The position numbers and the translations under genes are program-made. The notes under the pieces are model-generated. The model made no database searches. It saw only the letters and a list, made by a program, of their open reading frames with translations, and was not told where the DNA came from. Below are positions 3,976 to 53,000 of a DNA stretch of 64,000 bases, one piece after another. The first letter of the stretch is position 1; each line of letters opens with the position of its first letter. The stretch is from Ophelia neglecta (Eukaryota), in NCBI GenBank assembly GCA_965285935.1, contig OZ260661.1, positions 129,518,001 through 129,582,000 of the forward strand, given 5' to 3'.

Positions 3976-6900
3976 TTTACTATGTAGTATAAGTCCCACG
4001 GACAACACATACTTGGACGTATATACTTTTCACACCAGGGGTCCATTAATCCTGTTACACCGACCTCAAAAACGGAAAAATATCTATTAGTCCTATCATC
4101 CCGAACAGTTTTCCTGGCACTTTGACTCCACATAAAACAAAGGCCTCCTATAGAGAGTGCTGTTTTTTGCTATTAAAAAACTTTGCTTTAAATTTCACAT
4201 GGTCTTTGAAAAAAAATGGCATAAAGCACGGTTTGCCACATTTGCTCACGATTTACGTTGCATTAAGACGCAAACCTTGTGACCTTTTCTTATAGTTGAC
4301 AAACTAAACGACTCAGACTGTCCGAGTTCCGGGTTAGCTTGCTTCCGAGTGTCAGAACCAGTGAAACATTATCCCCGTGCTTCAACCACTTCCGTTTTGT
4401 TCTCTAGAATAAACACCTTTTCCCCTTCAATATATAAACATATTTTCAGCTGCAGCCTTTTTTTTATTAAAGCACCTATCCGTGCAAAGCTAAATCTTTA
4501 TGGAAATCGTAAACACAAGAGGCATATTTCTCTATTGTCTATTATAGACTTAACCATTTGACCATTTTTGTTTGCACATAGCCATGCATGTTTAGAAGTG
4601 TTTAAACTGGAATGGCTTCGTCCTATACTAAGTAACCATAATATGGTTGCTGTTACAGTACAATCTCCAACTCATCATTTAGAGATGAGAGTAGAATTAA
4701 TTGTAGCAGTCGAGTACTTATCTCGTCACAGCATAATTGGCTTGCCGATCGTCTGCTTTCATAAACTAGCGTCGTTTTTCATCCCGCAATCGAATTGGCG
4801 AGAAGTTTTTTTTTTCCTGATATGTGTGATTTGTATGAATAGAGCCTGCTTACATTTGGGATTTGTTCCACCCCAATGGGTTCTTTGCCTTACCGGAGTT
4901 CATAATGATTATTAACCTTCTTCCGTGATTTATATCTCTTTATGTTCCGCATGAACGACTCCTCCCATTCTGTGTCCTTCAGAGTTATTAGGAGTATAGG
5001 CTTACATTTGAGTAAATTGGTCGGCATGAATTAGCTATAGGATCGCCTGAGCGCCTGCTCTTGTGTCGTTTCCTCTGCTTGAGCACTTGAGCAGACGACT
5101 TGTGTTCTGATTGAGCCTAAGGTCATTACAGAACTCACTTGCGACAGTTAAAACACTTTTAACCTCAGAGCATCTCAACTGACTATAGCCCCAAGATGGA
5201 TGGCACCCGTATCGTGGTGCTATTCAGATATAAATGCCCATAATAATTCACCCCATTGTCGTCTGCTCCATTCATCCATCATCCACCACTTTGGACGCCA
5301 TCTTTGTTTTTGGATGCTCATTGAGGAAATATAATAGGAAATGAAAAAACTACAGGAAGTTATTCTCGAATACATATTTCATATACTAGGTGTTCTCGGT
5401 CCATCCTATGTAGATTGAAAAAACACAATTGCAAGATGCTTTTTCTTTTAGAATACTAAGAACATTGTGTTGTAAAAAGGAGAAAAGAAAATTATTCCAT
5501 GATTTGAAGAGAGGTCGTTTTGGAGTCGGCAGGGCACGTTATCGGAATAAACGTGTCTCTTCAGACAAAGTACTGAGTATGATTGTTGCTGCTCTTTACG
5601 AGAAAGTAACCCACGGTTTTCCTAGATGGAAAGATGGCTAAGGGTGTTGGGTTGCCTTACTACTGCAGATGTGGGCGGGATGGATTACTTGGAATATACC
5701 TGCTCGCTCTCAGAGTATCATTCTGCATTGCTACGCCGTGCCAGCTTAAAAATATCCCAGTGTGGCTATTTTCAGCCTGACGTCTCGCCCTAACCTTGCG
5801 CCTTGGGCTTTATCAAATGTACCTTCATGCCATCATCAAAATGTCAACGTCAATTCATCGTCTTTGGGCGGTAATCTCGCCTCTGATGTGTAAATGGGAG
5901 CTTAAAGTCCGGCGTGTTTGCTTTGGAGGCGTTTGCTGAACGCTCTCTGTGTTTTTATGTCTGGGGATGGCAGTCTTCTAGAAGATCTTGAGCTGACAAA
6001 AGTGCTCCTCACCTACTTCTGTCCTATCCGTGGCTAAAGACCGAAGTTGGGTGACTTTTTCTGTTGACGCATTCTCTTTATATGGTTTCGGTTGTTTTGT
6101 TGATCAGCGGTAGAGATCAAACCATCCTTAGTACTGCACGATTATCATTTGATCTAGGAAGCCAATTCTGTGTCCAGCCACAGCCATTAAAATGTCAGAT
6201 GAAAGGAGGGCGCTCAACGAGCCCCGCCGTAAACCTAGAGGACATGACCGTACCTCCGCTGGAACGCACAGCTTCCCGCCAAACCAAAACGAGGTCGTCG
6301 ATCAATGTCGTCTGCCGTCATTTTTATTTCGGGAGCCCACTTCTCGATGGTATAGTATGGCGCAAAGCACATTGTTCTTGTGAATTTAAATATTGATTCC
6401 AGGAAAATCCCGTCAGATAACGATTCTTTATTATTGCATCAGGCAGCTCGAGCAGCCAAGGCCGCATAACTCAACGCCAAATCAGAATAAAGTCAGGCGA
6501 TTGTATGCTAAGCCGCATTCGATGGCGGGAAATTGAGGTTGTGATTGTGTCAGAGGCCGAAAGGGTGTCCCCATAGCGGCAAACCCGGGGATTTAGGAGA
6601 GGGGGGGGATCAATATCACCGCGACCCGATCTGTACCTTTCAGGGTCTGGGGAAGGGAACGTTAGATATGTATAGGGTACATGAAAGCCGTCCTAACGCC
6701 GCCCCTAAAGCTGATGTATTCTCTGACTCCAATCGGGACAAGTCTCTACCAGCGGCACCAACAGCTTATGCTCCTCTCGCCGAAAATATCATGAATGATA
6801 GACTGCTGAAATATCATCATTGTACTCCGGAATTGAAAGTGAAAAACGAGCGCATTTGATTAGGAAGAATATCAGTCACCGTCAGAGACTCTAGTCTTGC

Positions 6901-8693
6901 GGATGTATTGCAAAGCCAACGGAAAGAGCAGCATACATTTTTTGGGGCCAAAAACGCAGTACAATTATTGATTCTTATTTCTCATAATTGCAATTGGGCT
7001 ACTGCTCCCAAAGGCTTAGCGAATTGATTCCGATAGAGGCTCAAGGGATTGATTCTCTCTATGTGCAGGTCTTTTAGCTGCCATCTCATCTGGCCTGCTG
7101 CAGCGAGGGGAGCGTTCCATTCATACGATTAATGAGGACGGGTTTCGGCCTGAAGGGGGCCTTAAACGCCCGCGCTATGATTAGACTTTATGGAACCCCA
7201 ATACCCGTCCATGTGTCTGTCGTGATGCCTTGACCCAACGTGATCAGTGTATAGCAATTACAATTTGTTTAACTGAAGACGGCTCGATATCAAATCATGT
7301 AAGGGGACCATAGATATAATCGCCTCTCAGTCTGTCCAAACCTTGATTGATTAGGGAACGCTGACCATTAATCACGTGATTTGCCTCAAGGTCACGTGAA
7401 TCTTCAATCAGACGCGATTTGTGGTCCGACTGGGCGTCTGACCTTAATATTTCAATGGATTGACCTTCACAGGGAGATCGGTAGGTAGTACCGTAAATAT
7501 AGGTAATTATGTTTATTTGGTAAGACATATTGATACAAAAAAAAGTTCCTTTGCCGACAATTTGGCGTAAATGGCTTTCATCGGCCTCCGCGGTCGAATG
7601 GTGAATGGTCTTTCGGGACGCCAGAATGGCGTCTTTCTTAAGCTTTGTATATTTGTTTCTGATCACTGAGATTCCTGGAAGTGAATGCCTGGCCCTATTT
7701 CTTATAAGCTCCGGCCCAGACTGAGGTTCTGTGCGGCTTGTCGTTCACAGTGCAGCCACCGGATTGAGTGGTTGTGACATTTGTACGGGTAGTTGCATCC
7801 GGGCAGTCACAAGGGACACTCCCTTCCCGGCATGCCATTAGCAACAAAGGGGACAAGCATTACCGCGGTAATGCAATCAGAACCTCGTGACCTAAGGCCA
7901 TCTGCGTCGGTCACCTGATCCGCGGGAGAGACGCAGTAATACTAGTTTTGGCGGTACTGGCAAATACCACCGCACTCCCCTGCTTTTGTCTTGACACGTT
8001 CAAGTCAATCTGGTTTTGTGTGGCTAATGCTCTCTCCAAATGAATAAACGGTGAAGGAAAAAGAAGGAAGGAAGGAATTACCGCTGTCGGTCACTCAGGC
8101 AATCTTCCGTCTTATGGTAAAAGTAGTTCGCTTGTCCCCTTACAACAATGATGTGCAATTTCTATTTTTGTGATGTGTATAAAGTGTTATTCTCAACCAA
8201 TCAACGTGTCTCTTTTTATTAAATACGGTGGATAATAACATTGGCTACACGGTACATTCTTATAAAATTCCCACAAAATGCGAGTTAAACAGGCGAAGAC
8301 CATCTAGGCTGCAATTTCCAATCTTAAGAGTATTACAAGAAGGCCCAAATCTCGTTTTCCCGCCATTTTACATCCGCACAAGAAATCCATTTTGACGCCA
8401 CTATTAGCTGCCTGTCGTAAAGAGATCACGCCACCCGAAGGTTTTTATCCACCGCTCGTTCTGCGAATGTACCACGTGCAATTGTCGTCTGGCTGCTTCT
8501 GGTGGTCGGGGAGGCTGATGGAGAGTTTTGGGGGGGGGGGGATGGGTGAGGGGCGGGGCTGGTGCTGTTGTGTATAGTTGTTTATGAGTGTGTGTGCGCT
8601 GGGGGGGGGGGGTCCATGTTATGGATATCAGGGGTTTATATATACAAGGGCCTATGGGTTTATTCCACAAAGCAGCCGTGATTTAGAACAACC

Positions 8694-8781
8694 CTTATGA
8701 ACCAGTAGTCTTTTATTCTCATGTGGCATAGGCCTAGGCTTATGAACCAGTAGTATTTTATTCTCATGTGGCCTAGGCCTA
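8694..8781. repeat. 45-bp tandem duplication
   Basis: CTTATGAACCAGTAGT.TTTTATTCTCATGTGGC.TAGGCCTA occurs twice head to tail. Confidence 0.85.
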
Positions 8782-10327
8782 TATTAAGTATGAAATAGAA
8801 GCCCTTGGCCGCTATTTGAGGTTGAGAAATTTGACGATTTTGCCAAGCAAGTCCGAAATAAATGTTGCCAAAATTTCCGATTAACACTGACAGCTACAAT
8901 CCCAATTTGGCGGGAGGCCAGTAAGCTTATATGACCCCTTGTCTTGAGGTCAAAGGGGTGTAACCCTACCCATGATTAAGCCTTACCGGACCCTCTTAAA
9001 CGAGCAATAGGCGAGCGCCATCTGAAATGCCCGTTGAAGGGGGTGCATTTAACCCAATTTGCTCTTATTTAATATCTACCGCCGGGGGAGTTCACGGGCT
9101 CTCCTGAACTTGAGTGTTTGCCTGACAGCCCTGTTATGGCAAAGCAAAATTGCTCAAGAAATGATATTAAAAACATAGAACGGAGCATTTTTACCCAATG
9201 AAATATTCCGCGAGTTTTTTTGTGCGGACCTACAGTTGAGATAAGCTATGGCGGGAAGCGTAGTACAGTGTCGGCTGCTCTCGGTTGGTTACGTCAGATT
9301 GAAGCAGAAAGCTGAAAGTGTACGAGTGCATGCGAGAGCGGTTTTAGAGCCGCCGTCATATCAAGACGCCATTTTGGCCAGATTTATTCTAATCCCCTTC
9401 GTCTGGCTCCCGCTCGACCCCCATCACCTTGTCTCGTAAATCAGGGCGTAATCAGCAGCCTAAATATGGCGAGGCATCTTGATAACCGTATGGAAAAATC
9501 ATGGGCCTTGGTCATTAAAATCTGCATGGAAACAGACTAAAACGCAAATAAAAAACAGGGTTTCTACGGAAACAGTGAGTTACAACATAAGCGATGATGA
9601 CATATTATTCGCAATGGAGCAATCGCTCTTCGGTCTTGGATAACAAAAATGTCAGAAACTTCGAAATTGCGCTCGCTAGCTAACCTCGAATCGCCCTGCC
9701 CAGCTTAGGCACGAGTGTTTGAAATAAAGGCGTTCAGGCGATGTCCGGCAGTCCGTAAAGGCAATCGGAAGCCCGCGCTAAGATAATAAAATAGCTTTTG
9801 TTGTTTAGCGTTCTGCTCTGACGGTTGTCGTCTGCTTCGTGTTTTTCTCCATAATCAAAACTGACGACTAGTCCATTTCAGAGGGCGGAGGGAAGGCAGG
9901 GGACGAGATTATTCTGACCGCCTCCGCTTTCCTCATTTTGAAATGTGTTCTGCACTCATAAATAGATTTTAATTTTGGGAATTCAAGTTAAAAATATTGG
10001 TTATCCATACCTCTGCTGCTTGGCTGGTTTTTGTTTTTTTTTAATAGATATTGTCTTGTTATATGATTCTAAAGTTTTTGATGCAACTATGGCCAAACAC
10101 CCCTATATACTTCAGAATAGAATGATCTTGATGGATTACCCGCGATCCACGGCATGTTTCTGGCCGATTGAATTCTCCACCGCTCACTGATCTCAAGTCG
10201 GCACGGCTTTAATCTCGGTCGTCAGGTAATAACGGTTCCGGGGGGCGTATCAGCGATGCTGTGATCCGGGTACTAAACTCGGACGCCCGTGCTGTGTATA
10301 CATTACTCCCGCCACTTTCAGACTCAC

Positions 10328-10400
10328 CTGACAAAATGGCCGTATTTATATGTGTTCGCATTAAATCCGACCGGTAAAATCGCCGTTAAGATGTGTGTGT
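10328..10400 (-). other. Candidate non-coding first exon of the minus-strand gene (TSS approximate)
   Basis: Perfect donor CAG|GTGAGT (plus 10322-10330 actcacctg), immediately preceded on the minus strand by a YY1-type GGCCATTTTG, and directly downstream of the CCAAT/BANP/ETS cluster. Confidence 0.55.
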
Positions 10401-10640
10401 TTGCGCGATGACTGATTGGTCCCAGAAACAGACCACCTGCTTGAAATTGTGATTGGCTCGAAGCCAAATTTCCTCTTAATTGTCTACAGAGCGTGTGAAA
10501 TAGATCAGGCTGCACGAAATCTCGCGAGACTACCGCCGCTCGTTGACCAATAGACCGCGTTTCTGACTAGAATGGCCACTTCCGGTAGTCAGTGCTATTT
10601 CGTGATTTGTCCATGTCTCGCGCGTGACAGCGAGATTTGT
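10330..10640 (-). promoter_or_regulatory. CpG-rich, TATA-less housekeeping-type Pol II promoter
   Basis: TCTCGCGAGA palindrome (~10519-10528; BANP-type motif), CCAAT/ATTGG boxes (~10415, ~10452, ~10547), ETS ACTTCCGG (~10578) and YY1-like AAATGGC (~10334) within ~300 bp. Confidence 0.7.
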
Positions 10641-10692
10641 TCATTTATCACTCACTGGTCTAATACCTAACCATGATAAAACGGCACAGGTA

Positions 10693-10809
10693 CATTAACT
10701 CCTGTGTTAGTGGTCATCAGTATAATAAGGTCACCTAGTAAGGTCACTAAATAATATGGTCAGTTTTCGCATGCAGTTTCTCGGATGGCCTGACTAACAG
10801 GTTTCACTG
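10693..10809. mobile_element. Internally deleted, degenerate CAGTGAAACC-family MITE
   Basis: Right end ACAGGTTTCACTG; internal GGTCA(C) iterations as in related copies; left end degraded. Confidence 0.45.
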
Positions 10810-11556
10810 CACACGGGACACGCTTGATTCCAAATCTTTTGGAGAAAGATCTCTGCGTCTTGGACGCGGCTAATTCTGGACTGGCGTACCAGGAACATAT
10901 CTCAGCGGCCAGTCGGTACCAGCCTACCATTGACCGTGTCTAACGCCCATATCGAGGGTGTTAATTGTGGCTAACATCATTTTGAAGGTCCATCTGGGGC
11001 CGTCTGACTCGGTTCAGTGTCAGTATAAATACTTTCAAAAGAGGGTACCAAACAGTAAAGGCTTGTTTGCAATAAATTGAGCCATGTAAAGAGCTGAACG
11101 ACCTGCCGGACAGCGGTTACAAACAAGTTACACACACAGAACATTGTTTGGCAATACACGAATAACTTATAACTTTTCTTTTTCTTTTTATCTTATCATT
11201 ATTATTATTTCAATATGTACGCTACAAATTGTATTATTTAAGCACTTAACTATACTACCTACCATATGTGAGCGATATAGGGGGTTATTGAACTAGGAAT
11301 ACAAAAACGGAATCGTTTACATCTCAATCACGAGGAAAATATATTGTCTTAAGACTAAACAGAAGGTGGATTCGAACACAAACTATAAACACAAAATTAT
11401 ACATCCAGGTTACGGACCTGAAACCCATTCACTCGTCTAGGTACTTCTACACATCCACTGTCGAATTTTAACACATCGCCTGAACAAACTCCAAACATTT
11501 CAGGTATATAACATCTACTGACGACCCAACTCAACCAGTGATAAATGCAAAAACTC

Positions 11557-11805
11557 GACAATGTCAAACACATACACTTAAACATTGTCAAAAACATAAC
11601 CTTAAAAATGTCAATCACATAGACTTTAACATTGTCAAAAACATAACCTCAAAAATGTCAAACACATACACTTAAACATTGTCAAAAACATACTCTTAAA
11701 AATGTCAAACACAAACACCTAAACATTGTCAAAAACATGCCCTCAAAAATATCAAACAAATATACTTTAACATTGTCATATACATACACTCAACACTGTC
11801 AAACC
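11557..11805. repeat. 47-bp (23+24 dimer) tandem repeat, ~5 copies
   Basis: ACATTGTCAAAAACATAACC..AAAAATGTCAAACACATACACTTAA with a 47-bp period (11582 to 11629). Confidence 0.9.
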
Positions 11806-14800
11806 TAATCTCAACAATATTAAGCATGTACACTCAACTATCTCAAGCACATTCACTTACCAAAGCCAAGTGCGCTATTCCTTATTGAAAACATAAACCA
11901 TCACAAGCACTCTCAAACAATCAGCTTTAACCCAATTAAATAATCATTCTCAATACTTTCGGAAAACTATGTTTCAAAAAACTCCAATTTAAGATGCCAA
12001 TATGGGAGTAGGATGCCTGGTCTGTTCAGAAACCCGGTTTGTAGGACCATCACGGCTTACAGGACCAGTCCGGAGATCAGGGGTGAGGTCGGTTTATTTA
12101 CCCGACTTAAATTCTGCAGTGGCCGCGAACTAAACTCCAGCACGAACATTCAACAGGATACAAATACAATCGCTGCTGGAATCATCAATCTCAATATTGT
12201 AATCAATACTAATAAAAAATAATTTCCATCAGGAAATATATGATGAACATTCCACAGAAGAGGCAGTCTACAATCTAATCACTTACACGGGTACCTTAGA
12301 AACCCAAAACCCAAGTCTATAACCTCTATCATATCCATGCTACCCTCTCGAACACTTTTACTCGGTATAACCAAAGGGTCTTCAAACTTCATAGCTCTTG
12401 TAAGTCATCTTATTTTCACCGTTCAATTAGTTTATTTGAAGTAAAAGTATTTACATAACATAACTATTGCATCTTCAGGAGATGTATTCCCGTCTTTTTC
12501 ACCTTTACATCACTAGTACTTCAATGAGCCTTATTATTCTTTCCGTTTTGTATACTCTTATTACAGTACATTTAAGTCATACGCCGCTAGCTGGAACCAA
12601 TGTTATTGTTTTTGAATGGAATATGGTTCTAAAATAAGAAAATAATCAGTAAAACATTTTTCTGTAGTAAAACTTCTGGTTGTAGGTAGCTCATAGAGCT
12701 CTGGCGAAAATATTAACAGCCCCGTTAAAACTGGAGTGGGGATTTTTTTCTTCTCTGTGTTACAAGAGCACCAGGCCGAAGTCAGCCTAATCACTACACC
12801 AAATGTAATGTGATCGCAATACACATTTGACTTATCATCACTTTTCAATGTGGCAAGAGATAAAACACCATAGGAATTATCCTGAGCAATTATACATATT
12901 GTGTGACGGCCATAGCACGACTCATCACTAATAAAATAGTGCCTCCTAACTACTGACTGCTTTATCTCGCGAAAGTCTTAAAAATAGATCCGGTAAACAG
13001 AAATAGGAGCAGACGAAGTAGTTAACAAGCTCTTACAGGAGTTTTATATCCGCAGGCATTGCGAAAGCGATAAATCATTCTTTATTTGTGGTCCTTTTTA
13101 CTTGTCAAGTTTATCCCTGTTGAAAGTAGAAACCAAATTAAACTGACATGTGGAGTTAGCCTTGGAATACAGGCAGCGTACAAATTAAGTTGTATCTATA
13201 TAAAGGTTATACACTCCATGGTTAACTTAAAAACATTCTCGTCTGTAAACCGGCACAGGTCAAATTTTACCATGCAGTAAGCTAAATCATGTCAACAACT
13301 GGGCGGAGCTCTTCATGTTTGTCACTTGTAGAAGAGCTGGACGGGGCGCCTCATGGTCCTCACTTCCCGTGGTGTTTCCCTGTACATCCCCATGGAACTT
13401 AATAGCGCCCCCAAACGGCTGTCTGTCTCCTTCAGTTTTATTAAATCGCTGGGAGGCATTCTTTGATGTTCAGCGGACATCAAAGATGGCAACAGCATCT
13501 GTAGTAGAGCGTTTTTTGGCCACATATGGCAAGCTTCCCAAGCTTAATACGGGCCGCAGATGGACCACTTAGAATGCTTTGGTTTCATTTCTGCTATAGG
13601 GAAGCAATGTATGTACTGTTTTGTCTTTCCAAGAAGTGCCACCGCCATTGACTGCATTCCATCCAAGAAGGTCGTATTACAGAAGAAAATAAAAAAGAGG
13701 TTTTGCATTTCGTCTGCTTCAAAGACATGCCAGTTTTTCCTGTCAGTGTCATGTAAGTATCGCCCAGGGCGCCTTTATCGGTTCAGCTACATCACATATA
13801 CACCGATTGCAACTGGTCTCAAGCTGACACAAAATTTCGGAAGTCGGTATTACTCAATGAGTCATGCCTGTGCCCGTGTCTCGCACCTAGCCTAATAGGC
13901 ATACTGGTACCATGGGAATGTAGAACAGACGAAACGATGGAATCCGTGTTATTTTTTGTGACCCTGGATTTGTGCGCTCTGATTGTCGCATTATAACACC
14001 AAAGATTATGTTTACTCTCAGTGGCCCATTTGCCTGAGGACTGTAAATGAATTACTCTTCCGGAGGTCAAGAGTTCTCACGTCACTAACAGACTGCTTTT
14101 GCCGAAAATGGCCCCCGGCAGCGTTCTTGGATGACCTACAATTGTAGGTGAACGTATCATTGAGCTTTCTGCCCCCATCGAATACTTTCTTGTTGAAATA
14201 TTCGTTCACAGTTGCCATGGCTAAAATCATCAACAAACCTTACCAATTTATTGACGAATTTGATCAATGAGGGGTTGGAGGCTATTTCCCAATATCCCTT
14301 GCTGTTCGCGCATGCGCGTCAATCAATCAAGTGGACAGGTCTGCATTTGATGCTCCAGGAATTCTTCGATTAGATCGTTTGGCACCATTCATTTCGCGGT
14401 AATACTGTTACCAGCGGGGCACCCTGGGAACTAGACCACCTACTCGAGATTGGCTAATCATGGGTTCTCAGATCTGAGGCCCTCGGCGCCGAATGGGGAT
14501 TGTTAAATGAGGCACAAATCGGGTCTCGCTTCTCCAGGGACCTTCGGTCGTCTGCCCCTGGAGACGGGGTTCACACCTGAATGTCCATGAGCAAGGTAAT
14601 TCGGGTGTTTGATCAATTATAGCCCAGTAAACCTGTCTTCTGTTGCAGTTTTTTCTGGCCATTTTTGCTCGGAGTCATTCGACATATAAATGTTATTATC
14701 TGCTGCCACTATTGGGAGTTAGGTTTAATGTCAGGAGGACCGACACATAATGACCTACAGATCATGACTAGGACAGGCTGGGGTGGAACCATTCACTGGC

Positions 14801-16230
14801 ATAGTAAGGTATCTTTTTAGTTGTTGACAAATCCCATACATTTCCCCTCCATTTTTCATTGCCGCAAGCCAAATTGCTCTAGACACCATCCCAGACTTTC
14901 GAAAAACCTCCTTTCAGCTGAAACACTCGACTCCAAACTCACACTCTAGTTGGTATATCCATGGCGTTATCATAGACTCATGACCACAATCCATTTTGAT
15001 CCTGTTTACACGTACCCTTTTGCAGGAATGCCCTTGGCACGCCCGGTAACGGACATTAATTTCTCGTGTGTGCCATGCCGTATTAAACGTCCGAGCGCCT
15101 TAGCCCCCTAATGAGATTATTCGGGTGGGAAATTTATCTCATCAGGCATACTGGCTCAAGGACTGCCAAATGTTAGAGAAGAGTCGCAAAACTAGCATTT
15201 CCAAACTCGGCGGAGCGAAAGATTTGATCCCCGATCTGTCCATTATGCACGATACCGGAGAGAGCGCAGTATTTTGTTTTTATCGTCCTGCCTAGGCGAA
15301 AACTGAACGAAATTTTTACAGGTACCTCTTGGAGAACGTTTTTTACAACAGTGGCCACTTCTTAAACACACTCGTCTGCTTGTTGCCTTGGAGATGAGCA
15401 GCCGCTTAAGGAGTTTGAGTATTTTGCTCTTGGGTGACATTGGTTTTGCAATTTCCGACGGGGGAAATAAGCAGTCTGCTCGAAACCCTTGTAGTTTTGT
15501 TCCATTAAATATACTGCTCGTCCGCTGGTTTAAACCACCATATTTCTTGGACCGACAAATAACAGTTGAAATGTCCCAGGAGAAATGGGGTTTTGTTGAA
15601 AGAAGATCGGCCATTCCGTTTCATGCTTCGCATATTCATCTTCAGTACTTTCCACGGCATTTGGAAAACATTTTTTTCGTCTGCTTTGGTTATCGTCTGC
15701 CACGCTTACTGCAAACCAAGAAATGTTGACAAGCAGCAAAATTTCGCGATCTACTTTTTTAAGGTATATTTTTAACTTTAGTGGCGGAGTAATACTAGTG
15801 TGATTTTCTATAGATATACGATCAGGGATCTCCGATACCGCCAATTTTCGAGAAGCGGCCAGTTTCATGAATTTCTCAAAAATGTTCAAGTCGCAAACAT
15901 TTTCTGGTGCATAATTCTAACCTTGATATTTCTGTTCAGATAAAGAAAGTAAAAAGATGAAAAGGAAGGGGAGTTAAAACATTCACATATAGATAGGCCT
16001 ACGTTTTTCAGATGGGCCTGTATATATGCTAGCGGTTGTTGCTTTGTATATTGCTAGCATTAGCCAGTAATTGAGAGCTAGACCAGCCTGTAAAGAACTC
16101 CACACTGCCGCATCGCTATCTCCTCTCGTCCCATCTCAGTAAGTAGTCTCTCTTACTGTGAAGTGCTACCAGCACTTAGGGGTTTCTCGAGATGATATCC
16201 CCAGTTTTCATCACCGGCGGTATCTAATGT

Positions 16231-17152: not shown

Positions 17153-17993
17153 AATGGTAGGACATTCTAATATGCATAATATGATTTCTTTTTCACACTT
17201 GCCGTCTGTTTAGTCATTAAAGTCGCTTTTCAGGGGTTTTTCTGATTACACAGTATTTTAGTGTCATTAAAATCTCGCGCGATGATATATCGCCTAATGA
17301 ACGCTGGGATTGATGACAGGTTGACTGCTGTAGTTCTCCGAAGGTATATTTTAATGTTTTCTCAAACTTTGCCCCTACCTGACAGTAATACGGGCTGGCT
17401 TTTCAGGATTTATACGAAACAAGCTGTTAGCAAACTGTTATACTTTAGCCAGATGTGTTATCGAAATTATGTGGGGTAGGGGGGAGGGGGAGATGGGGGG
17501 AGGTGGCTGGAATACAGATCCTGTGGAAGGGATTGGATAAGCGAAAATGTTCCCGAGAGATAGGGTATGGTGGCTAGTAGGAGGGACGGGATGTCCTTTC
17601 AATGAGAGGCCTGGGGCCTAGAGGGTAGCTTGTACCATCTATATAAGAGGGGTTCGGAGGACTAGTGCCTGGGGAGGGGGGGGGGGGGGGGGGAGGTGCG
17701 CGTGGGGGGGGGGGACTCCAGGAGGTTGTCTGTGGTAGTTGGTGGGGAGGCGGTAATTTCTTCTGGCGATGGTCTGGGAGCTATATATTGGGTGTCCTCC
17801 CCAGGGGGGCGTCTAGGGGCTAGTGGTTGGGGTCAGTGTCCCCGGGATAGTGGTTGGGGGTGTCTGTCCCCTCCTGGAGAGAGTCTGATGGCTAGAGGGT
17901 GGGGTGTCCCCTCTTGTGGGGGCTACTGGGTGGATGGGTGTCTCCTCCAGAGAATGGAGGTAGGCGGCCGCTTGAAAAGGGGGAATGACCTGG

Positions 17994-18380
17994 CAGTGGC
18001 GTAGGAAGCTGGGGGCCGGGGGGGGGGGATGCCCCCCACTTAAAAAAGTGGGGGGCCAACATATGTTTTGCCCCCCCCCCCCCCCCACTTTTAATGATGA
18101 CCCTCGCACTTTTTGCCCTCTCAAAATGGTGCACATGCAGCAGTGGTAAGAAGTGTATGTCCTCAGTTGGCTTGACCATGATCATATAGTTACCTGAGCT
18201 GTGGGCGGGTTATTTACAAACCCATAACACAGCCAATAATTGAAAATTTATTCAATGTATTTTGGCATGTAAAGATCAATGTTCAGTAGCGTAGGAAGCA
18301 GGGGGGGGGGGGGGCATGCCCTCCCCCACTTAAAAAAGTGGGGGACCATATGTTTTGCCCCCCCCCCCCCCCCACTTTTT
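17994..18380 (+). mobile_element. Two left-end fragments of a CAGTGGCGTAGGAAG element (17994-18092, 18284-18380)
   Basis: Both read CAGT(G/A)GCGTAGGAAGC-Gn-ATGCCC..CCCCACTTAAAAAAGTGGGGG..CATATGTTTTG-Cn-ACTTTT. No right ends seen. Confidence 0.65.
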
Positions 18381-19230: not shown

Positions 19231-19891
19231 TATTCGTCTTGACCGCACCATTTGTCTTATGAGAAATTTAGGAAAGCAAGATGATGAGCAAATTTGATAT
19301 TTTTAGCGTCTCATATATGATAGCCTAATATTTCCCTTTCATTGTATGAAACAATATCGCTGAAATTTGATGATTTAGTGGAAAAAAATGTACAGTCTTT
19401 GGCTCAATTATCGGCATGTGGTGGGTGTTATTAATATCTGCGGAAGAGAGAAGGCGAATTTGTTATATTTACTTGACTCACCGTCGGTGTATCGCAATAA
19501 AAACGAAATTATGTCCGATGTATTTTAAAATGAGTAGAAACATAGCATATGTAGGAATGTGCGGCAAGTCATCTAAGTGTCAAATAAGATATTATCTTCC
19601 TGTCTGCCGACGGCAGACGATATCTTTGTTCATAGCTCATGCCAATATGCTTGCCTATTTTTATAAATACTGGCCCGGCTCCTAGGAACTCTCGGCTAAG
19701 ACGCCGACCTACTACGGCTTTCCGCGGCCGCAGAGAGGCGCAGTTGCGCCGAAGTTTAGCCGAGGGTTCCTCATGACCGTGACTTCAATATAGGAAAAAG
19801 CAGAGTTTGAAAGCTGGCTTTATTTTTATAGGACATGGGGATAGTAAAAAAATAACCTATTTAAGATACAATGTGTTTTATGTAGCTACTG

Positions 19892-34430: not shown

Positions 34431-34532
34431 CAGGGGTTTGGTGTGCCAAGGCCTACATTGTGTATGTATTGTAAATCAATAAATTTCAGCATTATTTAAA
34501 CAGTTGTTTATACCAAATTAATTTGGCAGCCA

Positions 34533-34768: not shown

Positions 34769-36580
34769 TAAACCATGAAACCGATCGTACACTGGATAGT
34801 GTATGTTGGAATGACACATCGATTAACCTAATATCTTGTTAACTAATGGATCCACAACAGTATTAGTAACCCACCAAGTTTTCACTTTAATGTGCAAAAA
34901 CTTAACTTAATCGCGACGTTCCCGTAATGGTTCCCATTGATTCACAACATATAGTTTTGTAGCCAATATATAGGTCTGGATGTAGCATTTAGTTTCGTAT
35001 GATACGCGTGTTCTATAAGCTCTTCGACTTGATTTATGATGACAACACTCCTTTATATATAAACCAAAAGATCCCGGACCATTGCCTTCCTGTTGATGAA
35101 CAAAAGGGTCCCGATCTCTTGCCCCCCCCCCCCCCCCCAACCTCCCGAGCAACAAGGGAGCAACTTCCATGCCCCATAAAATCAACAAAAGGAGTCCCCA
35201 TCCGTTGTCCTCCTCCCTCTAAACCAACGAAAAAGGGACCTGACTCATTGTCCCCCTCTGGTTCATCAAAAGGGGCCTTTTACACTTACCCCCGCCGTCT
35301 CAAGATCCCCAAGAAGGGCCTCTAACCTTGCCCCCGCGCCCCTCCATACATCCTCACAAGGGGCCTCTAACCCTTACCCCCCCCCCCAAGCCCTCTCTAG
35401 ATCCCCTATGCAGGTGTCGTCGACCTTCTTCACTGTAGACAGATTTAGCGTCCTCATCAGGTATTTCATACCCGTTATTACGCATGCGTTTGGCTAATCT
35501 CATCACCTCATCAAGAGCTAGTAGCCCTTACACAAGAGGCCGCCTTAATTCCAAAGTACCAATCTCGACTGTGTCCTTTTCTTGGAGATTTACTGCTCAG
35601 AAGGTGAGAGGCGCACATCGTTTTAGATGCCCATTATGGTAACGGTCTTATCGGGTACCAACGTAAAGTGGATTATGGCTCCATACCTCGCCTGCAAGAC
35701 CGCCTGGGGAATTCTAAGAAGCCTTTTACTTTGTGATTTTTTGTTGACATGTATTTTTGTGAGTCCCTGATCCCCGAAATAAAGGCGACGAAAGCTATCA
35801 GATTCTCATCAGATCCTCATCGGCGTTCGTGCTCGCAGCCCACTACATGTCACGCTGCCGGAGACGAGCCAGCTATCAACCGACTATATGCGCATGCGCA
35901 CAGGATACGGATGCTGCTTATAACTTCCTGCTGACTTTGGTCCACCGCCCTTATAGTTTAATCACTGATCAACCTCTATATATTAATCTTATGCTTAACC
36001 GTGGCAAACTCGTGTCTCCGCAGCTGGTCTTTCCAGGAGCGCAGCTAGTATACAATACGCAGGAGTAAAGTTTAGGGTAAATAAATGGGCTTAATACAAT
36101 ATCTCTGTAAAAGGTTAATAATAACTCGCTTCAGACCGTGATGGGGAAATTACCCACGGGCTGCTGGCCTCTGCCCACTGTGATGTTAGGTTATTTCTGC
36201 AGTAATCCTCGTGATTGCGTCTAACTTAATGGCTTCTGTTTATCGTGCTCATTGTATTTATTTTATAATAAGTGACCCCCGTGTAGATATAAAGAATGGC
36301 CGATAGGCCTACCAAATCATTGCTATGGTTTCGAGCTGCAGCTTGTTTTGTCTAATTGGCGGTAATTTGAATTGGGCTCTCTTTCAAGTCACGTGATGCG
36401 TGAGGAAGCTGTGTTTCCATGAAATAGAAAGCGATGGCAGTTTTAGCCATGATCGAGAAGCACGTGGTATAAATAAATGGGTCCAGCCGCTTGAGGCAGC
36501 GGCTGTGGCAGGGGACCTCAGCAGGGGACCTTGGCCGGGCCACAGAGGGCGTCCGCGTCCGGAGAGCCGGGGCGGCCAGA

Positions 36581-36810
36581 CTGCGTCTCAGGTGGCCTCG
36601 GCCGGGCTACAGGGAGCAGCAGCCGGCGGCCGGGGTGCAGAGAGCAGCGGCCGGCCGGGACCGCGTCTCAGGGGGCCTCGGCCTGGCTACAGGGGGCAGC
36701 AGCCGGCGGCCGGGGTGCAGAGAGCAGCGGCCGGCCGGGACCGCGTCTCAGGGGGCCTCGGCCTGGCTACAGGGAGCAGCAGCCGGCGGCCGGGGCGCAG
36801 AGAGCAGCAG
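36581..36810. repeat. 80-bp very GC-rich tandem repeat, ~3 copies
   Basis: GCGTCTCAG recurs at an 80-bp period (36583, 36663, 36743); internal GCAGC.GCCGGC sub-repeats. Confidence 0.9.
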
Positions 36811-38743
36811 ACGACATTGACCTGGCCGCAGTACACAACATTCCTCTGTGGATCCCTGTCCGGCAGAATGCTTTTTTCGTTCCAGCCGCAGTGCTGACGG
36901 TGAAATTAATATCTTCAACAATACGTTCGCTGCAGCCAGGTGCATGCACCAAGAAGGCCGCAAATACTGGCTGCTGCCGGAGCAAAATGGACAGCGACTT
37001 GAACCTTTTTCTCACGCCGAAGACCGTAGTTTATAACAAAGTTAAATAACATAAAATTAATGTGTTATTTCTTACATAAACCACTGATGAGTCATTTTGT
37101 TTTAAAGTGTTCCTAAAGTTACCTTCCTCTTTGGTTATACCCATACAAGGATATATGAGGCACTTCACACGCTGTCTACACATTCAAAACAAAAAAGAAC
37201 AAAATATTGTTTCATAAACTGTCAGACGCATAAGCGAATGAAAGACTTTCTCATTGAAAGAAATTATTTCAATTATAGCAACAAAAAATATCCGTTTCAC
37301 AACACAACAGATAATGTACGGGAGGTGAAAACTGCAAAGGATCATGTTATTTAACAAACACCTTGGTTTTTACTTCATTGTAAGGGATCTGAGAACACGA
37401 GAGAAGTTCTTAAGCTTAGAGCTATGTCACACAATCAACTGTCCACAGGCCCGCCCTGGAATTGGTGAATCTAGGATTTTCATACTCCGGCCTGTTTGGA
37501 ATTTCTTTCTTTTTGGGCTAAATAATTTTCTTATTCGAATACGAACAAGGCACCTTCTGTGGTATCATAAATTATTTGCAAACATCGCTTTATTCAGGTA
37601 ATCAGTTTGTTTATTATCGCCCAAGGACACGGACGTATCAACATGAAGGACATTGATACAATTCAAAGGACTGTTTTATTGCTATGCTGGTGTATTTAAA
37701 CGAACGCAATATTGAATCGACCACAGGAAGCTTTAAAGAGACGCTTTGAATAATGTGTCATGTCATACTATAAACACGAATAAAACACAAGCAACAAGTT
37801 TTATCAATGTAAATCAGACATCCCAACTTTTTGTACATGTTAAGAAGGAACTTTGTTGAAGCTATTGAAAGTATGCAACGCAAATAGGCGTGTGACTTCT
37901 TTATTGTCAGTTTTGTCATAGGTTGGAAAAGATTTACAAAGTACTCTTCGGTGAAAAACAGAAATAGGCGTTATTTTGACAGTGCAGTACTTCACTATAT
38001 AAGTGTGTTATGTACATGACTTTAGGGGACGGGTTGCTATATTTAAATCAGATTGATGTTTTTCTGGTTGTCGTCTGCCATTTTGGTGGCCCTCAGTGAA
38101 TGCAGAATTCAGGTAATGAAATATTTTCAAAATGTCGCAGATTTTTCTTCTCTAGATCTGGATGTAAAACACAGGATAAAAGTTTCACCTACACACACAC
38201 CGGCTAGTTACAAATGTCATAAAACTCAGCAGACGAGAGGTGGCTATTCTAGCATATGTAATCTAGAGCTGGCTGTAGCTGCAACGTCCAATCAAAGTCA
38301 GTAGGGTAGCCTTACTTGGCTTTTTTTAAAATAAGGCTAGACCAATAAAAACAGTCACTAGTTTTTGCAGAAATTTCAAGCTGCTTATTAGAACAGGACA
38401 CAGGAAGAAAGGTCGCGTAGACATAATTAGGAAATGTGATCTCCCTTAAACCGTTACCGAGTCAGTGTCCATAAGGCAAATATATTTCTCGGTCTATATC
38501 TACATGTATACCTGTTTTACTTACTGGCCTAAATCATTTATACCTAATCAAGGGCTGATCGTTACAGTTTTAAACCCCTTCAAATACTTACTTAATAGTT
38601 TTATGTCAAAGTGTTCAAAGTTTGAACAAGCATGATAAGCCCTAGATGGCTTAAATTTCTGCAAGAAGCAAAATAGCAACGACTACTTGATGTGCAATTA
38701 AACGGTGCGCGCGATTAGGCGATAATAACGGTTATATCCGGTT

Positions 38744-41716: not shown

Positions 41717-42590
41717 CTTTAGACATTTGAACTGTATGTCTGACAGTGACCCAAAATTCTCTGGAAAAGTATGCACTGGCTAACTCTACAACTGGCTATC
41801 TTGGCACAAATCATTCTCTACCAGTGGGTTGATAAACATGGCTCAACACATTTTCTTGGAAAATTAAAATTTTTCCCTATCCCTTTCCTTATTCCAAAGT
41901 TTAATGAGCCTTACACTGTTTTAATAGCCCCTTCGCTGATAGCTCCACCCTAATCCGTGGGTCAAGGTCGATATTGAAAGAGTTTATTATATACGAATTG
42001 AATTGAATTATGCTCAAACGAAATTTATGTAATTTTGGACTAGAAAGAAAGGAACGCTCATGAGCGATAATGAAGGTCATTCACAGGACACACCGGAAAT
42101 ACATCCGAAACCACTTCCAGGGAGAATTCGGTTATCTATTAACTTCTGTACTATCTGCTGTGTATCCATGTGTTTTACCTATATAGCTTGCTCTGCTGCC
42201 GCTACGCGGCAGATTGAGAGATATCTATATAACACCACATGCGACCTGAAATTTCGTTACGTTATGCAATAGGGCTATATCCTATAGAATATAGAGCCAC
42301 GCAGGGAAAGCGCATAAAGGAAATAGTCAGATCACCATAACTTCCTGTTTTTGCTATGATGCTGTATGGCTTAATTGTATCATATGATCTATAATGTATA
42401 ATTGGAGTGCGTGGAAATAAATCAATCTCGGTTTATTATCCATGGGGTCACAGTTCACCGTCGGATAGTCGTCTGCTCAGCACCCTGGGCGATATTAGGC
42501 GAACTGACCTTCGTGGAGTTTGGTTGAAACCGGTAGCATTCCGCCTTCTGAGTCGTTGCAGTATATAGGCATTTCTGAATCATACATTTA

Positions 42591-44410: not shown

Positions 44411-44855
44411 CACACTATAAATTGTAATACGCAGTTAAGGTTGTTGCCATCACGTCCACCTTTTCATTTAATGTATCAAGTCTGGATTCAATTTTGATAT
44501 ACTGTAGAGATAAGTTTGATACCCGGCCCGGCGTTGAATGGCCGGACTTCGCCAGCACGCGAGCCTATACTTCTTGTGTCCCAGCTCCATACATTTTCAT
44601 CAACAGAACCATTCACCCGTTCCTTTTCATCTCTATTATAAACTTTGTCAGGGTCAATATTTTGATAATTAACAAAGAAAGGTGCCATTGATATTTTAAT
44701 AGATATGCTCTGGAATGTCGTCTGCTTTTTAGCCAATACCAATAGGCCTATAGAATAAAGTCCATTTATCTGATTGCGCTGGTGGTAGTTCAAGATCCAG
44801 ACCGAATTACGATAGCATGTCTATTTAACGTAGGACCATGCAGTGCTGGCTTGCT

Positions 44856-45056
44856 CAGTGGCGGTCCAGGATTTCAGGAAGGGGGGGGGGGCAAATTTTC
44901 CAGAGTGGACAAAGCCATTGTCGGGATTGTCCCCGTTACCAACCCTCTGAAACCACCTTGCGAAGGTCCAGAAATAGGCCCTGGTCCGGGCCCACTTTTT
45001 GGCAAAGGGGGGAGGGCGGGCCCCCTGCCCCCCCCCCCCCCCTAAATCCGCCACTG
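44856..45056 (+). mobile_element. MITE with CAGTGGCGG TIRs and 5-bp TSD, family A
   Basis: CAGTGGCGG...CCGCCACTG with perfect TSD TTGCT. Confidence 0.9.
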
Positions 45057-46764
45057 TTGCTATACTTTTCTAATCTATGTTTTCTGGTACCGGAATATGC
45101 CAGGAAAATTATTCGGGAAACTCTCCAGGGACTTTCACAATTTGACCATTCTCACCCTACCCCGTTCCCCCTTTTTATAGGGCCGCACTTATATTGAACA
45201 GTCTTCGGAAAGGGGTAGTGCGCTTACAGACAGTTAAAACTGGAGTTATTATGTGCATAAATCGGCAAACTGTGACTCATATCAAAGCCTGGATGTTACT
45301 TAATTCTTTAAGAAAAAATTAGTAACTTTTATTCGGGGGTCAACTAATGGGTTAAGGAGAGGGCTCTCCCTCAGCGGACTGTTTATTTTAACTTCGGCTG
45401 GCTTTTGTGACACTGACATCTCAATAGCGTGTAGGATATATATCTAATTAACTTTCAACCAGCAAGAAATAGTCGCATTTCTGTTCCCCCTTTCTGTACG
45501 TCTAAAAACGAATTTCACGGTTCAATTTGGCGAAGAGTTTGCCTTTTGTTAAGTTGATATGTAGAGTACTTGGACATGTCACTTGTATCATCATCAAATT
45601 ACCCTTGGAATGTATGAATGCGTACAGTGACTGTGTTAAGGTTAGGGACAAATGTCTACACTGTCGTGTATTCATCTTCATAAAAACACAGCATCTGAAC
45701 TTAAATGTGGAAATAAATAAACAGTACATCTATATATTGATTGTATACATATTTCGTCCGAGAACTGTTCCATATTTCGATCACCTGGGTGACGGGCACT
45801 AGACAAGCAGTGATTTCACGGCTGGTTAACCCAGAACGCAATATGTCTACTGTATATCGCCGACGTGTTTATTGTTAATGGTGATTTAGGCGCTCGACAG
45901 GACGAGCCTACTCACTGCACTCTATAGATTAATCCGCGCCGGTGATCACTGCCTTAGCAATGTCACTTTAGAAGCGCTAGTTTTTGCTATATACTACACC
46001 CTGGAGACATTGTAGGTTTTACTGCTGAATTCTTAAGCTCGGCCATAGAGGCATTCCCTAATTTTCTTGTTATATCATGCGTGTGTCTTTGATCACCTGG
46101 TAAAAAACGCACTGCTCAGGTAGAATATCTGGATTAAAAAAAAACCTATCGGCCTTTGGGCAAGACATTTTCGCCAACAGGGAAATTTCTCAAACCGTTT
46201 TTAGATTTCGTCACTAGATAAGCTAGGGAGCGATACAGGAAAAATTCCGGAAATGGACAATTGTGTCAGTTTCGAGTTGATTTCATGGTGCAGTATTTGT
46301 TATGGCAAGGAATGGGCTTTGGTGAATGGAAATATCTGATGTCTATACAGGTCGCTCCTCCCACCACCCATCCCCAACCCCCTACGCTCATCCCGCCCAC
46401 TCTCTGTTCTGTTCGACATTCCTTAAATGAATTGTGGACACATTCTTTGGCGGGTTCAAACGTCGACAACTCAAGTATTTTAAGTAATTCTAGCTGAAAT
46501 CCAAGCATAACTGTACCTTATATTTTCCCCAAGCTGATAAAATTGATTTTTTGTCGGCAATCTTCCAGAATTATTGGGAGCGGCGCTATAGGTGAGATTG
46601 TTTCCTTAGGCCGGGCGGCCTAAGGTCGGCTTCGTTCGCCACATTACACCCGCTGAAAGGAGCTAGTGTTTTCCAAGTCCATTCAGTCTATGTTTACTGC
46701 GCTTATTTTGTCGCTGTTTTTTCCGCTTTGGAACAATATTCGGCCAGTTGGGGGTATATACGAG

Positions 46765-47100
46765 GTCCCTGAAAGCTAAAATATCAAATATTGCCAATAG
46801 TATGCAAGTAAAATATCTATCTATTTGTTATTTTTACCTAAGAAAGCTTCCTAAAAACATTTATATCAGCCACCAACATATTTCGCTGATCCCGAGCAGC
46901 ACATACAGTTCGTATACAGGTACATTTGGTCATTAGAAGGGTGTCCACCTCATGCACGTCCATCTAGTGGTCCTAGGAGATGATCTGATGGCTACAAGCC
47001 AAAGGCCTATAGTCTGATCTGTTCTTATGTGGTTATTTTGTCAGCACGCTGAAAGTGGCCCCAGAACAGATATTCTCGAGAACAGATCTCTGGGGACTGC
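46765..47100 (-). repeat. Copy of the 24090-24420 dispersed repeat
   Basis: High-identity reverse-complement match, e.g. CACCAACATATTTCGCTGA.CCCGAGCAGCACATAC.GTTCGTAT.CAGGTACATTTGGTCA.TAGAAGGGTGTCCAC. Confidence 0.85.
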
Positions 47101-49902: not shown

Positions 49903-50093
49903 CAGGGGCGGATCCAGGAATTTCCAGGGAGGGGGCACACTCCATGTGGAGGAATTGAAAAGCGGGGGTGGGGGGGGGGGGGGGGCACAGAAGCTGGGGT
50001 GGATGCATACATGCATCTAGTTGTCTATATTTTGGACGCCTTTATGGGCTTGTTCGAAGTGAATAAAAAAAATCGTGGGTGGATCCGCCCATG
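49903..50093 (+). mobile_element. MITE with CAGGGGCGGATCC TIRs and 5-bp TSD, family B
   Basis: CAGGGGCGGATCCA...TGGATCCGCCCATG with perfect TSD GACAC. Confidence 0.88.
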
Positions 50094-53000
50094 GACACAC
50101 GTTGTTCCATTATGCCTGAACCTTAGGAATTCAACCGGTACATCTCACTGTTTTCAATAGACCTACATGCTCGTGCATGTGGCATTTAGATATAGACAGC
50201 TATATGAACTTCCGATCGGATCTATTGAGTTTTATAATAGTTACTGTATAGGGATTAAATTTCTCTGGAAGATCATTCAATAGAACCCGCGGGGGGGGGG
50301 GGGGGGAGGGGGCAAACCCCAAAGATTGTTCAGCGCTTCGTCTGCTCAAAGGGAAAAGTTAAGTGGGCTAATTGTGATATGTGAAAATGATAATTAGGTA
50401 GTTAAAATGGAATATAACAAATAAATGTTAATTTCATTTGGGCTCTCTATAGCACTGGGCATTCAGGCCACTTTCAGGAGGTACAATATGTTTATGTTAT
50501 TGCGGCCTTGGTGACCTTGACCTGGAGTGGCAGCATATGCAGGCGGGACTGGGGCGCAATTCTGTTATCAAAACACACCCTTTGATATTGTGGACTGTGA
50601 GGGTTTAAAAGCAAGCCATATAATTGGTGTCAGTAACCTCTTCACGCGAAGTGGGAGGAAGGGGGGGGGGGTGTTTGTGATAAGAGCCAGTTCAGACATC
50701 CCCCCCTCGGTAACTGTGAGACGAGATTTTTATGCGGAGGTCTGTTTCAAAGATCTTAGTGATATTTTTAAGTTTTGGGGCGCCTTCCAGGCCGTAATAT
50801 CCACCAGTCAGTCGATATGTTTGCAATCCAAGTTTTGCCAAACGCGCGGATTACTTAATAATGTCCTTATGAGAAGATTATATAAGATTATATAAGGTTT
50901 TCTCTCCCTGTTCCGTTACTTCGCGTGCCTTTTCTCGTTGAATATTTATTTTTATTACACATCTGTTTATTTACGTGTTTTTTAACTCCTGATTAAGCCT
51001 ACCATCACAAAGTACGCGGGATGCCATCATCAGCTCGCACTCTCAATGGAATTAGCCACACAATGAAGCGACCGCCGACACGGCGAGGTCGCCCCTGTTT
51101 TTCAATGCGCTATTTTTGCCAGACTTGTCACGCCCCGTGGCAAACTTAAGGCTTGTGCTAGCTATTTTTAGACGCCCATCTTCTTGCGCCTGGCAAAGCG
51201 CCGCGGGAAGCGATACATGTAATAAGTTTAGTGTGGGCCACCATGTGTTATAACAGAGGAGAGAGAGAGAAGCACAGATCTATTCAGTCAGAAAGAGAAA
51301 AAGACAGTCTACGGACGGATATATTTAAACTTTCTAACGGCGGACACTTATATAGGGAGAAGCACTGTGAAAACTCGCGCAGGGATGGCAGACGAGACTG
51401 TAGCCCATTGTGGGCGATAATTGCGGCGATTACTCTGATGATTAAATGCTAATATTTGTTCATCAGATAAATGGTGATCTGGAATCTGGAGTGAATGGTT
51501 TGCCATATGTTCACTGCATCAATAACACCGAGGCTTGAAACAACTTACTAACGGTGTCGGCTGCGCATTCCTACGCCCAGGGTTAGGTGATGTGTTTTGG
51601 GGTATAAGTAATAGCCCTTAGCATGTAAGGCAGACCCATGGTGCCGTTCATACATGACATTCGCTCGGACACCATATGGACAGTGACAAAACTCTTTCGT
51701 AGCCCGACCAGATCGGAGTTTTCAACTCGAAACAGGACTAAGCCGTTTCAACGAGAATGCTGCCTGTGCATGTGGACCCGTCGGCAGCATCTGGCTTCCA
51801 GTTTGGATTCCTAAACACTGGCTGAAAAAAGTGCAGGAAAATCCAACGCAATTCTTAGCAGTTTAGGATCCGAAAGTCCATGTACAATACCATTGGAATA
51901 TGTTTAAAAGCGTTCCAGCATTAACTACTTCTGTCTGCTTGTCAGGCTGGTAATTCCCTGCGGCGGCAGATCGCTCTCCATCAGGTTAGGAGACGGTCAG
52001 CTCGCTAGACTCTCAGTTTAAGGGTAAATAGGTAAGTAAATATAGGCCTTTAGGTATAGATAATAAGGGGAGGTTAGGGTGGTCTTCTTCCCGGTTCTCA
52101 GTTTAAAAATAGGCACTCCCCGATTCACGAATATTTAAACTCTGGATTTAAGTTAATTGTCAATGGTCACGGGAAGTTAGAGACATTTCCGGGTCACAGT
52201 AGATGATCTTTGATCCCGATTCACGAAATATTTTGGCCTTAATTTCCAGGTCAGGGTTAATTGAAAATACCGTTGCGCCGTGGGTCGGAAATACCCCAAC
52301 CTTCCCCCCCCCTCCTACTCCCCCCCCCCCCGCCCCCCGGTATAATATATGGCGTGTCGACTGTCAGTCTGGGTATGCGATTAGGAATTCTCTTCCATAA
52401 AATGTCTATTATCCACACCCCTTATCTGATTCTGCCTGGCGTTTGCTCTGCGGCAGATGTTGCACCTCATCTATAGATATTTTCTCTCCAAATGTCATGT
52501 ATATGTTATTTCCCAGTGGAGATTTTTAGCGTTGTGCTAAAAAACGTCAGGGCATTGACTCGGGGATTTGTTATGGGGATAACTGTCTCTTTGCTTCTTG
52601 TTTCCACTATCTTGATAAAGCTCCAGCACATTTTTTCCGTCGCCAGATCATTGACAGCTGTTGCATTCTATTCTGTGCAGGGCTGTATGGGATCTGTCAT
52701 AATTCATTGGGTTTCAGGAGGTGTGCGGAAGAGGTAAAAATCAGATCTATCTAAAAATGATGTACATTCTGTATAGAGTTGCCCCTGTTCCTTGCCTCGG
52801 AGTAATTTTAATAAACTTCATTTTTAAGCACAATGTCAAGCGCAGTTTTTCGTGTCCTGTCTCAACCTGCTGTTTTGATAATTATAAATTAGGTTACTTT
52901 AACAAAAAACAGGTCATGATTAGCCACAATACACACGATTCACTGTAATCTGTTTTGTCAGATATCCCTAAAGGTATGTTTATTTTCTCTTGACGTACCA

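Follow-up and report, generated by a model that had tools for sequence, protein, structure and literature searches.

The window analysed here, a stretch of 64,000 nucleotides from Ophelia neglecta, consists of non-coding annelid DNA directly upstream of a 5-HT7-like receptor gene and carries 19 copies of the octamer TCGTCTGC, the subject of this report. A Pfam scan of 274 of its 338 stop-to-stop frames of at least 55 aa, which left out mostly repeat-derived frames, found no family above threshold and one sub-threshold match. The receptor is encoded by an intact single-exon open reading frame (L011:1590-3026) that starts 1.6 kb past the window end; 5-HT7 is its best solved relative, and the best named one comes from Capitella teleta (76%). 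A 5-HT7 tree, representing one gene and a short tree search, placed the receptor among the annelids, outside the well-supported Capitella clade. Located 200 bp ahead of the receptor's start, a splice-acceptor-like sequence suggests a first-intron or upstream position for much of the window.

A promoter-like element that lacks TCGTCTGC lies at 10333..10620, where it is spanned by single contigs; the nearest copy of the octamer is 500 bp away. The element contains promoter-type words, among them a TCTCGCGAGA..CCAAT match at 10520-10551, which we take to resemble YY1, CCAAT, Banp-type TCTCGCGAGA and ETS sites, and it is possibly a distant promoter of the 5-HT7-like gene. The observed/expected CpG ratio is bimodal across genome tiles (10 kb throughout), as would be expected from mosaic methylation, and the window is mostly CpG-intact. 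GC content is 0.41-0.47 from about 20 kb before to about 30 kb after the window, with CpG kept, versus 0.36-0.38 farther out; this rise is less clear in the Hox tiles described below. The motif-rich zone comprises the window and about 50 kb past it (7, 4, 3, 4 and 2 sites per successive tile), including four copies of GCAGACG clustered past the window at L011:3438-3530. Farther on there are 0-1 sites per tile, and the 100 kb upstream of the window hold 8.

Copies of the octamer in the window

The original prediction had listed at least 19 copies of the octamer on both strands, and all 19 coordinates were confirmed, 13 on the forward and 6 on the reverse strand. One hundred dinucleotide shuffles of the window contained 0.64 copies on average and 4 at most. 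With tandem repeats masked, TCGTCTGC was the window's most enriched 8-mer apart from poly-C under order-2 and order-4 models, with 18 copies observed versus 0.89 (order 2) and 2.39 (order 4) expected; the count is 18 and not 19 because the reverse-strand site at 36807..36814 overlaps the end of an 80-bp tandem array (36579-36810) and is lost on masking. A suggested extension to (G/T)TCGTCTGC(T/C) held on the 3' side, where T or C follows in 19 of 19 sites, and proved looser than claimed on the 5' side, where G precedes 9 of 19.

Eleven sites fall within 4749-15700, in line with an earlier count of 11 copies within about 6 kb of the element at 10.4 kb, and a densest 12-kb stretch holding 11 of 19 sites has p = 0.008 in 5000 random placements. 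On the forward strand, this group includes 4749..4756, the complete forms TG-TCGTCTGC-T at 5259..5266 and 9828..9835 and TG-TCGTCTGC-C at 6308..6315, then 13710..13717, 14548..14555, 15372..15379 and a direct pair with a spacing of 16 bp (15677 and 15693, together 15677..15700); 5091..5098 and 13009..13016 are on the reverse strand. The remaining word matches lie at 38071..38078, 42469..42476, 44718..44725 and 50338..50345 on the forward strand and at 19613..19620, 38229..38236 and 51388..51395, besides the array-end site already mentioned, on the reverse strand. The sites from 13009 to 15700 belong to a single-copy stretch: the interval 12900-16100, which carries 6 of the 19 sites, has no genomic match other than itself. 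Contig depth stays close to baseline across 4.0-10.4 kb and 12.0-16.3 kb, save for one bin near 8.5 kb.

A repeat origin of TCGTCTGC was considered and rejected. None of the 19 window sites and 2 of 188 sampled sites lay in repeats found by self-BLAST of a 1.46-Mb sample, which detects only common repeat families. Comparison of the flanks of the 188 sites yielded one related pair and a median best flank identity of 37%, and the best in-register identity of the window sites was 34-40%, which bears out the earlier statement that the word stands outside repeat families in unrelated flanks. (One of the repeat comparisons scored 39 of 240 candidates and was not a full test.) None of the 40 variants listed, from a total of 197, fell within a site, a number too small to test depletion (three runs, one sample).

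Sequence profile and genomic distribution

Across 221 sites, T occupies position -2 in 126 and G position -1 in 120, T or C follows the core in 160, and the profile is flat beyond. In 324 kb of motif-rich DNA, the word occurs 80 times versus 5.1 expected, compared with 13 versus 12.5 for TTGTCTGC and 8 versus 8.8 for TCATCTGC, its CpG-decay neighbours. Single-change neighbours at core positions 2-7 reach at most about twice expectation, compared with 16-fold for TCGTCTGC, and change is best tolerated at the end positions. That the core is perfect while its flanks are unrelated, with no halo of decayed variants, would point to purifying selection. The CpG ratio is 0.84 near sites and 0.75 at control positions; among 6- and 7-mers within 150 bp of 80 sites, no partner word was convincing after many tests.

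Genome-wide, TCGTCTGC has 26,791 copies in 762 Mb, about 3.5 times the Markov expectation, so that the k-mer enrichment suggested as a check of the original prediction is borne out. The mean of 2.25 copies per 64 kb exceeds the 1-2 that had been assumed, and the window is a further 8-fold denser. A reversed-pattern control (22,956 genome matches) was set aside because CGTCTGCT belongs to the extended word. To resolve this distribution by locus, we used classes fixed before sites were counted. Forty evenly spaced tiles (400 kb) contained 13 sites versus 4.0 expected (rank 122 of 32,343 8-mers), of which 10 were in 21 CpG-intact tiles and 3 in 19 others. Twenty tiles (200 kb) of a Hox cluster, whose identity is inferred from ten co-oriented top-scoring homeoboxes in 553 kb, contained 39 sites versus 3.1 expected, making the word rank 1 of 31,426 8-mers. 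Twenty other homeobox tiles (200 kb), taken mostly from the top of 147 matches with one per cluster, contained 43 versus 3.0 expected. Against the CpG-intact background, the p values were 2.5e-4 for Hox and 4.0e-4 for other homeobox tiles, and homeobox tiles exceeded that background about four-fold in site density. Twenty G-protein-coupled receptor (GPCR) tiles, from the best 22 of 143 matches, contained 25 sites versus 3.0 expected (p = 0.089 against the same background). The form (TG)TCGTCTGC(T/C) is about six times denser at Hox-type, other body-plan and 5-HT7-like genes than genome-wide. This enrichment across homeobox and inferred Hox landscapes is the informative pattern that the first reading of the window missed.

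The promoter tie proposed for the word was not recovered. Twenty promoter-like tiles (200 kb) contained 19 sites (p = 0.17 against CpG-intact background), of which 6 came from one tile, while 10 tiles were empty; the profile was flat, with no central TCGTCTGC peak in these tiles, which were picked by sequence and not by mapped starts. They derive from 38 TCTCGCGAGA..CCAAT matches, of which 11 repeated copies resembling long terminal repeats (LTRs) and the window's own were left out and 20 of the remaining 26 used. Near-identical TCTCGCGAGA..CCAAT segments also occur as direct pairs spaced by about 6 kb (G000 C1:73106459/73111824 and four others like it); these are probably young LTR retrotransposons whose ends contain promoter-type words.

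Around the inferred Hox cluster, gene-poor DNA beyond one side held 20 sites in 20 tiles, about 1 per 10 kb; on the other side, 4 sites in 4 tiles were followed by 0 in 16 tiles, mostly CpG-depleted or satellite. About 80 kb of AT-rich satellite lies at G000 C1:60.29-60.37 Mb (L243-L250), some 150 kb past the low-coordinate end of the cluster. Elsewhere among the homeobox loci, a single 1862-aa open frame with four homeodomains was observed at C5:76117698-76120247, and inverted duplicate homeobox pairs at C1:22.86-22.99 Mb.

Pairs of TCGTCTGC within 30 bp are strongly biased in orientation, with 124 direct matches versus 15 and 15 for two inverted arrangements; with arrays collapsed, the first 100 direct matches represent 61 loci, versus about 11-12 per inverted type. 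This bias could stem from local duplication, from cooperative binding to sites in direct orientation or from the loss of hairpins. Of 68 close-pair loci across the genome, 12 have a homeobox no more than 50 kb away, versus 1.2 expected; the set was built from the first 100 of the 124 direct matches plus the tail-to-tail matches from that range, with arrays collapsed and the present locus dropped. Many unrelated minisatellites with units of about 12-38 bp contain TCGTCTGC, several of them between or beside homeobox genes. Examples are found at C1:130882484, C1:147569140 and 147581017, C5:81364486 and C5:91768607, and further ones at C1:148634081, C2:94728854 and C8:16570049 (all G000).

For comparison with other animals, we reduced 80 metagenome GPCR loci to 60 non-redundant ones, 48 of which come from CpG-rich genomes that are probably other worms. 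Their 225 kb of non-coding flanks contained 16 sites versus 8.8 (order 2) or 10.6 (order 3) expected, compared with 25 versus 3.0 at the GPCR loci of this worm, and the 10-mer occurred 5 times versus 0.8 expected. The strong TCGTCTGC signal is absent from these flanks, and the 10-mer may be a weak trace of it.

Several other sequence features were observed. The palindrome TAGGCCTA, present at window 8730-8780 and genome-wide, is the most enriched 8-mer of the background tiles once homopolymers are set aside, and it also leads the 8-mers in flanks of the CpG-rich metagenome loci; TACATGTA is similarly common in this genome. A short inverted-repeat family at window positions 3800, 10692, 21863, 42588, 55764, 56691 and 59895 is the probable source of the excess of AGACCACC and AGTGAAAC in the window, words that we assume to resemble Gli and IRF sites. 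Window 17990-18320 holds a very high-copy poly-G-bearing element whose contig depth, when summed, exceeds baseline several hundred- to a thousand-fold.

Comparison with described motifs

The closest parallel is a Capitella teleta motif that matches no described profile and is reported at 57.6% of topologically associating domain boundaries and 68.8% of loop anchors (10.64898/2026.05.18.725834). It also occurs in the Hox stripe anchor and is described as species-specific, Owenia and Dimorphilus carrying a YY1-like motif instead (same source). Its enrichment was computed on a GC-matched genomic background, so a general enhancer motif would surface as well. Like TCGTCTGC, the Capitella motif is annelid and without a described match; it is also lineage-restricted, as the word may be, and has a link to the Hox domain and to regulatory DNA in introns and between genes. 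Unlike this loop-anchor motif, TCGTCTGC is scattered over whole landscapes, and 10-kb tiles showed no edge spike. The strings 'cagac' and 'gtctg' are absent from the accessible text of that report, in which the motif letters are confined to Fig. 1l and supplementary tables 29-34. That the Capitella motif is the TCGTCTGC word is a serious possibility, to which we give slightly less than an even chance; the claim of an undescribed system has become uncertain in view of this reported motif.

Two further systems serve as working analogues, not as families that include TCGTCTGC. The GC-rich loop-anchor motif of ctenophores is read by the C2H2 zinc-finger proteins CTEP1 and CTEP2 and blocked by methylation (PMC12221973). 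It resembles our word as a CpG-containing motif in regulatory DNA and as a lineage-restricted one, as the word may be; for the word we propose a CTEP-like mechanism. The lineage differs, however, and proteins, loops and methylation sensitivity have been shown in ctenophores, whereas the annelid word is known from sequence; moreover, the CTEP motif is common at promoters (PMC12221973), which TCGTCTGC does not favour. The Drosophila Zelda word CAGGTAG is likewise short, ranks first in enrichment in developmental regulatory DNA and is spread through non-coding sequence, and Zelda's general activating role is backed by binding data (PMC3197655). However, CAGGTAG is a different word without a CpG, and it occurs 35 times versus 25 expected in the Hox and other homeobox tiles.

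The earlier statement that the octamer matches no classical motif needs a caveat, because five of its bases form the Smad3/4 element GTCTG/CAGAC (PMC3732602). Over the 400 kb of Hox and homeobox tiles, enrichment was confined to the longer word with the CpG (82 versus 6.1 expected), as opposed to GTCTG (813 versus 712), TGTCTG (290 versus 267), TGTCTGG (57 versus 55), GTCTAGAC (6 versus 7.3) and TTGTCTGC (18 versus 15.9). Other GTCT-core Smad forms include TGTCTG and GTCTAGAC. The Smad composite GRCGNC-N5-GTCT was found at 0 of 221 sites with 0.17 expected, which is uninformative. The presumed HINFP/MIZF core CGTCCGC is one base from CGTCTGC; an HINFP-like identity was rejected, as CGTCCGC occurs 9 times versus 10.3 expected in the Hox and homeobox tiles. 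Exact-word literature searches listed no paper on the motif, only a cancer preprint without relation to it and two insect papers with other topics, although motifs printed as logos escape such searches; passages of PMC7854359, PMC12637686, PMC11292947, PMC11618098, PMC12407938 and PMC9977687 with its preprint gave no motif letters.

Possible functions of the word

As a dispersed word that is not a repeat, (TG)TCGTCTGC(T/C) is concentrated in CpG-intact, repeat-poor homeobox, inferred Hox and some receptor landscapes. The octamer has likely been selected as the site at which one general, lineage-restricted DNA-binding protein binds: the part of the original prediction that proposed a selectively maintained protein site gains from the profile, the single-copy context and the genome-wide enrichment. 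Neither a promoter tie nor, at 10-kb tiling, a spike at a domain edge was supported. We lean slightly towards a model in which one such factor binds unmethylated TCGTCTGC in developmental and some neural enhancers and keeps them open or tethered. In this model, the factor would open control regions or tie them into loops, in a role resembling that of Zelda in flies or CTEP1/2 in ctenophores; binding would depend on an intact CpG, and methylation may block it, with roughly one site or one small direct-repeat cluster per regulatory element. The purine strand of the word reads GCA-GAC-GAC, presumably three GNN triplets under the zinc-finger code, which is suggestive of a C2H2 zinc-finger reader. 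We offer such a protein as a guess.

Several observations weigh against this enhancer-factor model. A single-finger pattern gave 38 matches versus 36 for a control, none in tandem, and no array fitting GCA-GAC-GAC was seen in the 20 of 38 matches inspected, although this pattern misses fingers split by introns or built with other residues. A gene that we take to be Evi1/Prdm16-like and two other multi-finger genes met in this search do not fit. No site spike was found at the edge of the Hox landscape in 60 tiles of 10 kb across and beside the cluster, about one third of which was sampled; sites spread in this way suit enhancers better than loop anchors. Site-free tiles amount to 4 of 20 for homeobox and 10 of 20 for GPCR loci. 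Homeobox tiles are 1-2.5% repeat versus at least 21% in the background, so part of the site excess merely reflects more unique non-coding DNA. No alignable non-coding DNA for site conservation was found among the 80 loci of other animals. Finally, the 5-HT7 tree does not place this worm within the capitellids, while the Capitella motif has been called species-specific.

A bolder proposal, which we hold with considerable doubt, is that TGTCGTCTGCY is the Capitella loop-anchor motif or its counterpart, shared by a wider annelid group. A methylation-sensitive protein would then have replaced YY1/CTCF as the main organiser of Hox and developmental chromatin domains, and the word-bearing minisatellites would amplify sites beside homeobox genes.

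The alternative that survives best, although unlikely, is Polycomb recruitment, with the reader of TCGTCTGC bringing repression to developmental-gene domains. Fly Polycomb response elements use Pho/YY1 and GAGA sites, and the YY1-type word GCCATTTT is mildly enriched in the same Hox and homeobox tiles (49 versus 33.5 expected). The sites run throughout the inferred Hox landscape and near homeobox genes, which are usual Polycomb targets, and the Owenia Hox cluster carries broad trimethylation of histone H3 lysine 27 before activation (10.64898/2026.05.18.725834). However, YY1-type words are absent from the top 6- and 7-mers within 150 bp of 80 sites, and the word is also dense at the serotonin-receptor locus and some other GPCR loci. 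Activation and repression are inseparable by sequence alone.

Still less probable is a neutral excess, in which ancient transposon-end remnants or local duplicates survive in unmethylated, repeat-poor DNA. The direct bias of close pairs, the many unrelated minisatellites with the word in their unit and the preference of background sites for CpG-intact tiles (10 in 21 versus 3 in 19) would fit this explanation, and a placozoan loop motif located in Mutator ends provides a precedent for a transposon origin (PMC12221973). However, remnants old enough to lack flank similarity should show decayed cores, and the single-change neighbours at core positions 2-7 reach at most about twice expectation; in addition, detected repeats contain 2 of 188 sites, and homeobox tiles stand about four-fold above CpG-intact background.

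We regard an extended Smad-binding element marking TGF-beta/BMP-responsive enhancers as very improbable: the word does contain the Smad3/4 element (PMC3732602), the genome has MH1-domain genes (5 matches) and developmental genes are plausible targets, but GTCTG-type words are at or barely above expectation in the 400 kb and the specificity spans 8-11 bases and requires the C of the CpG. Equally hard to credit is a promoter element shielding promoters from methylation, the reading nearest to the emphasis of the original prediction, for which the clustering of 11 of 19 sites within 6 kb of the promoter-like element, the raised CpG ratio at sites and the 19 sites in promoter-like tiles would speak, against the missing central peak, the concentration of 6 sites in one tile with half the tiles empty, the 500 bp between that element and its nearest site and the continuation of sites through gene-poor DNA.

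The word is a real marker of developmental regulatory landscapes in an annelid; it is probably selected, and it has possibly been glimpsed already in Capitella. If it is the Capitella motif, our data would widen that finding beyond one species and would not describe a new system. How Hox and other long developmental regulatory domains are organised in non-fly invertebrates is an open question, in which lineage-specific motifs and ctenophore zinc-finger proteins at loop anchors have recently been found. An 11-base word, together with a CpG mutant that is not enriched in the genome and serves as a built-in control, makes the annelid factor testable by pull-down, and the word could mark regulatory landscapes in unannotated worm genomes.

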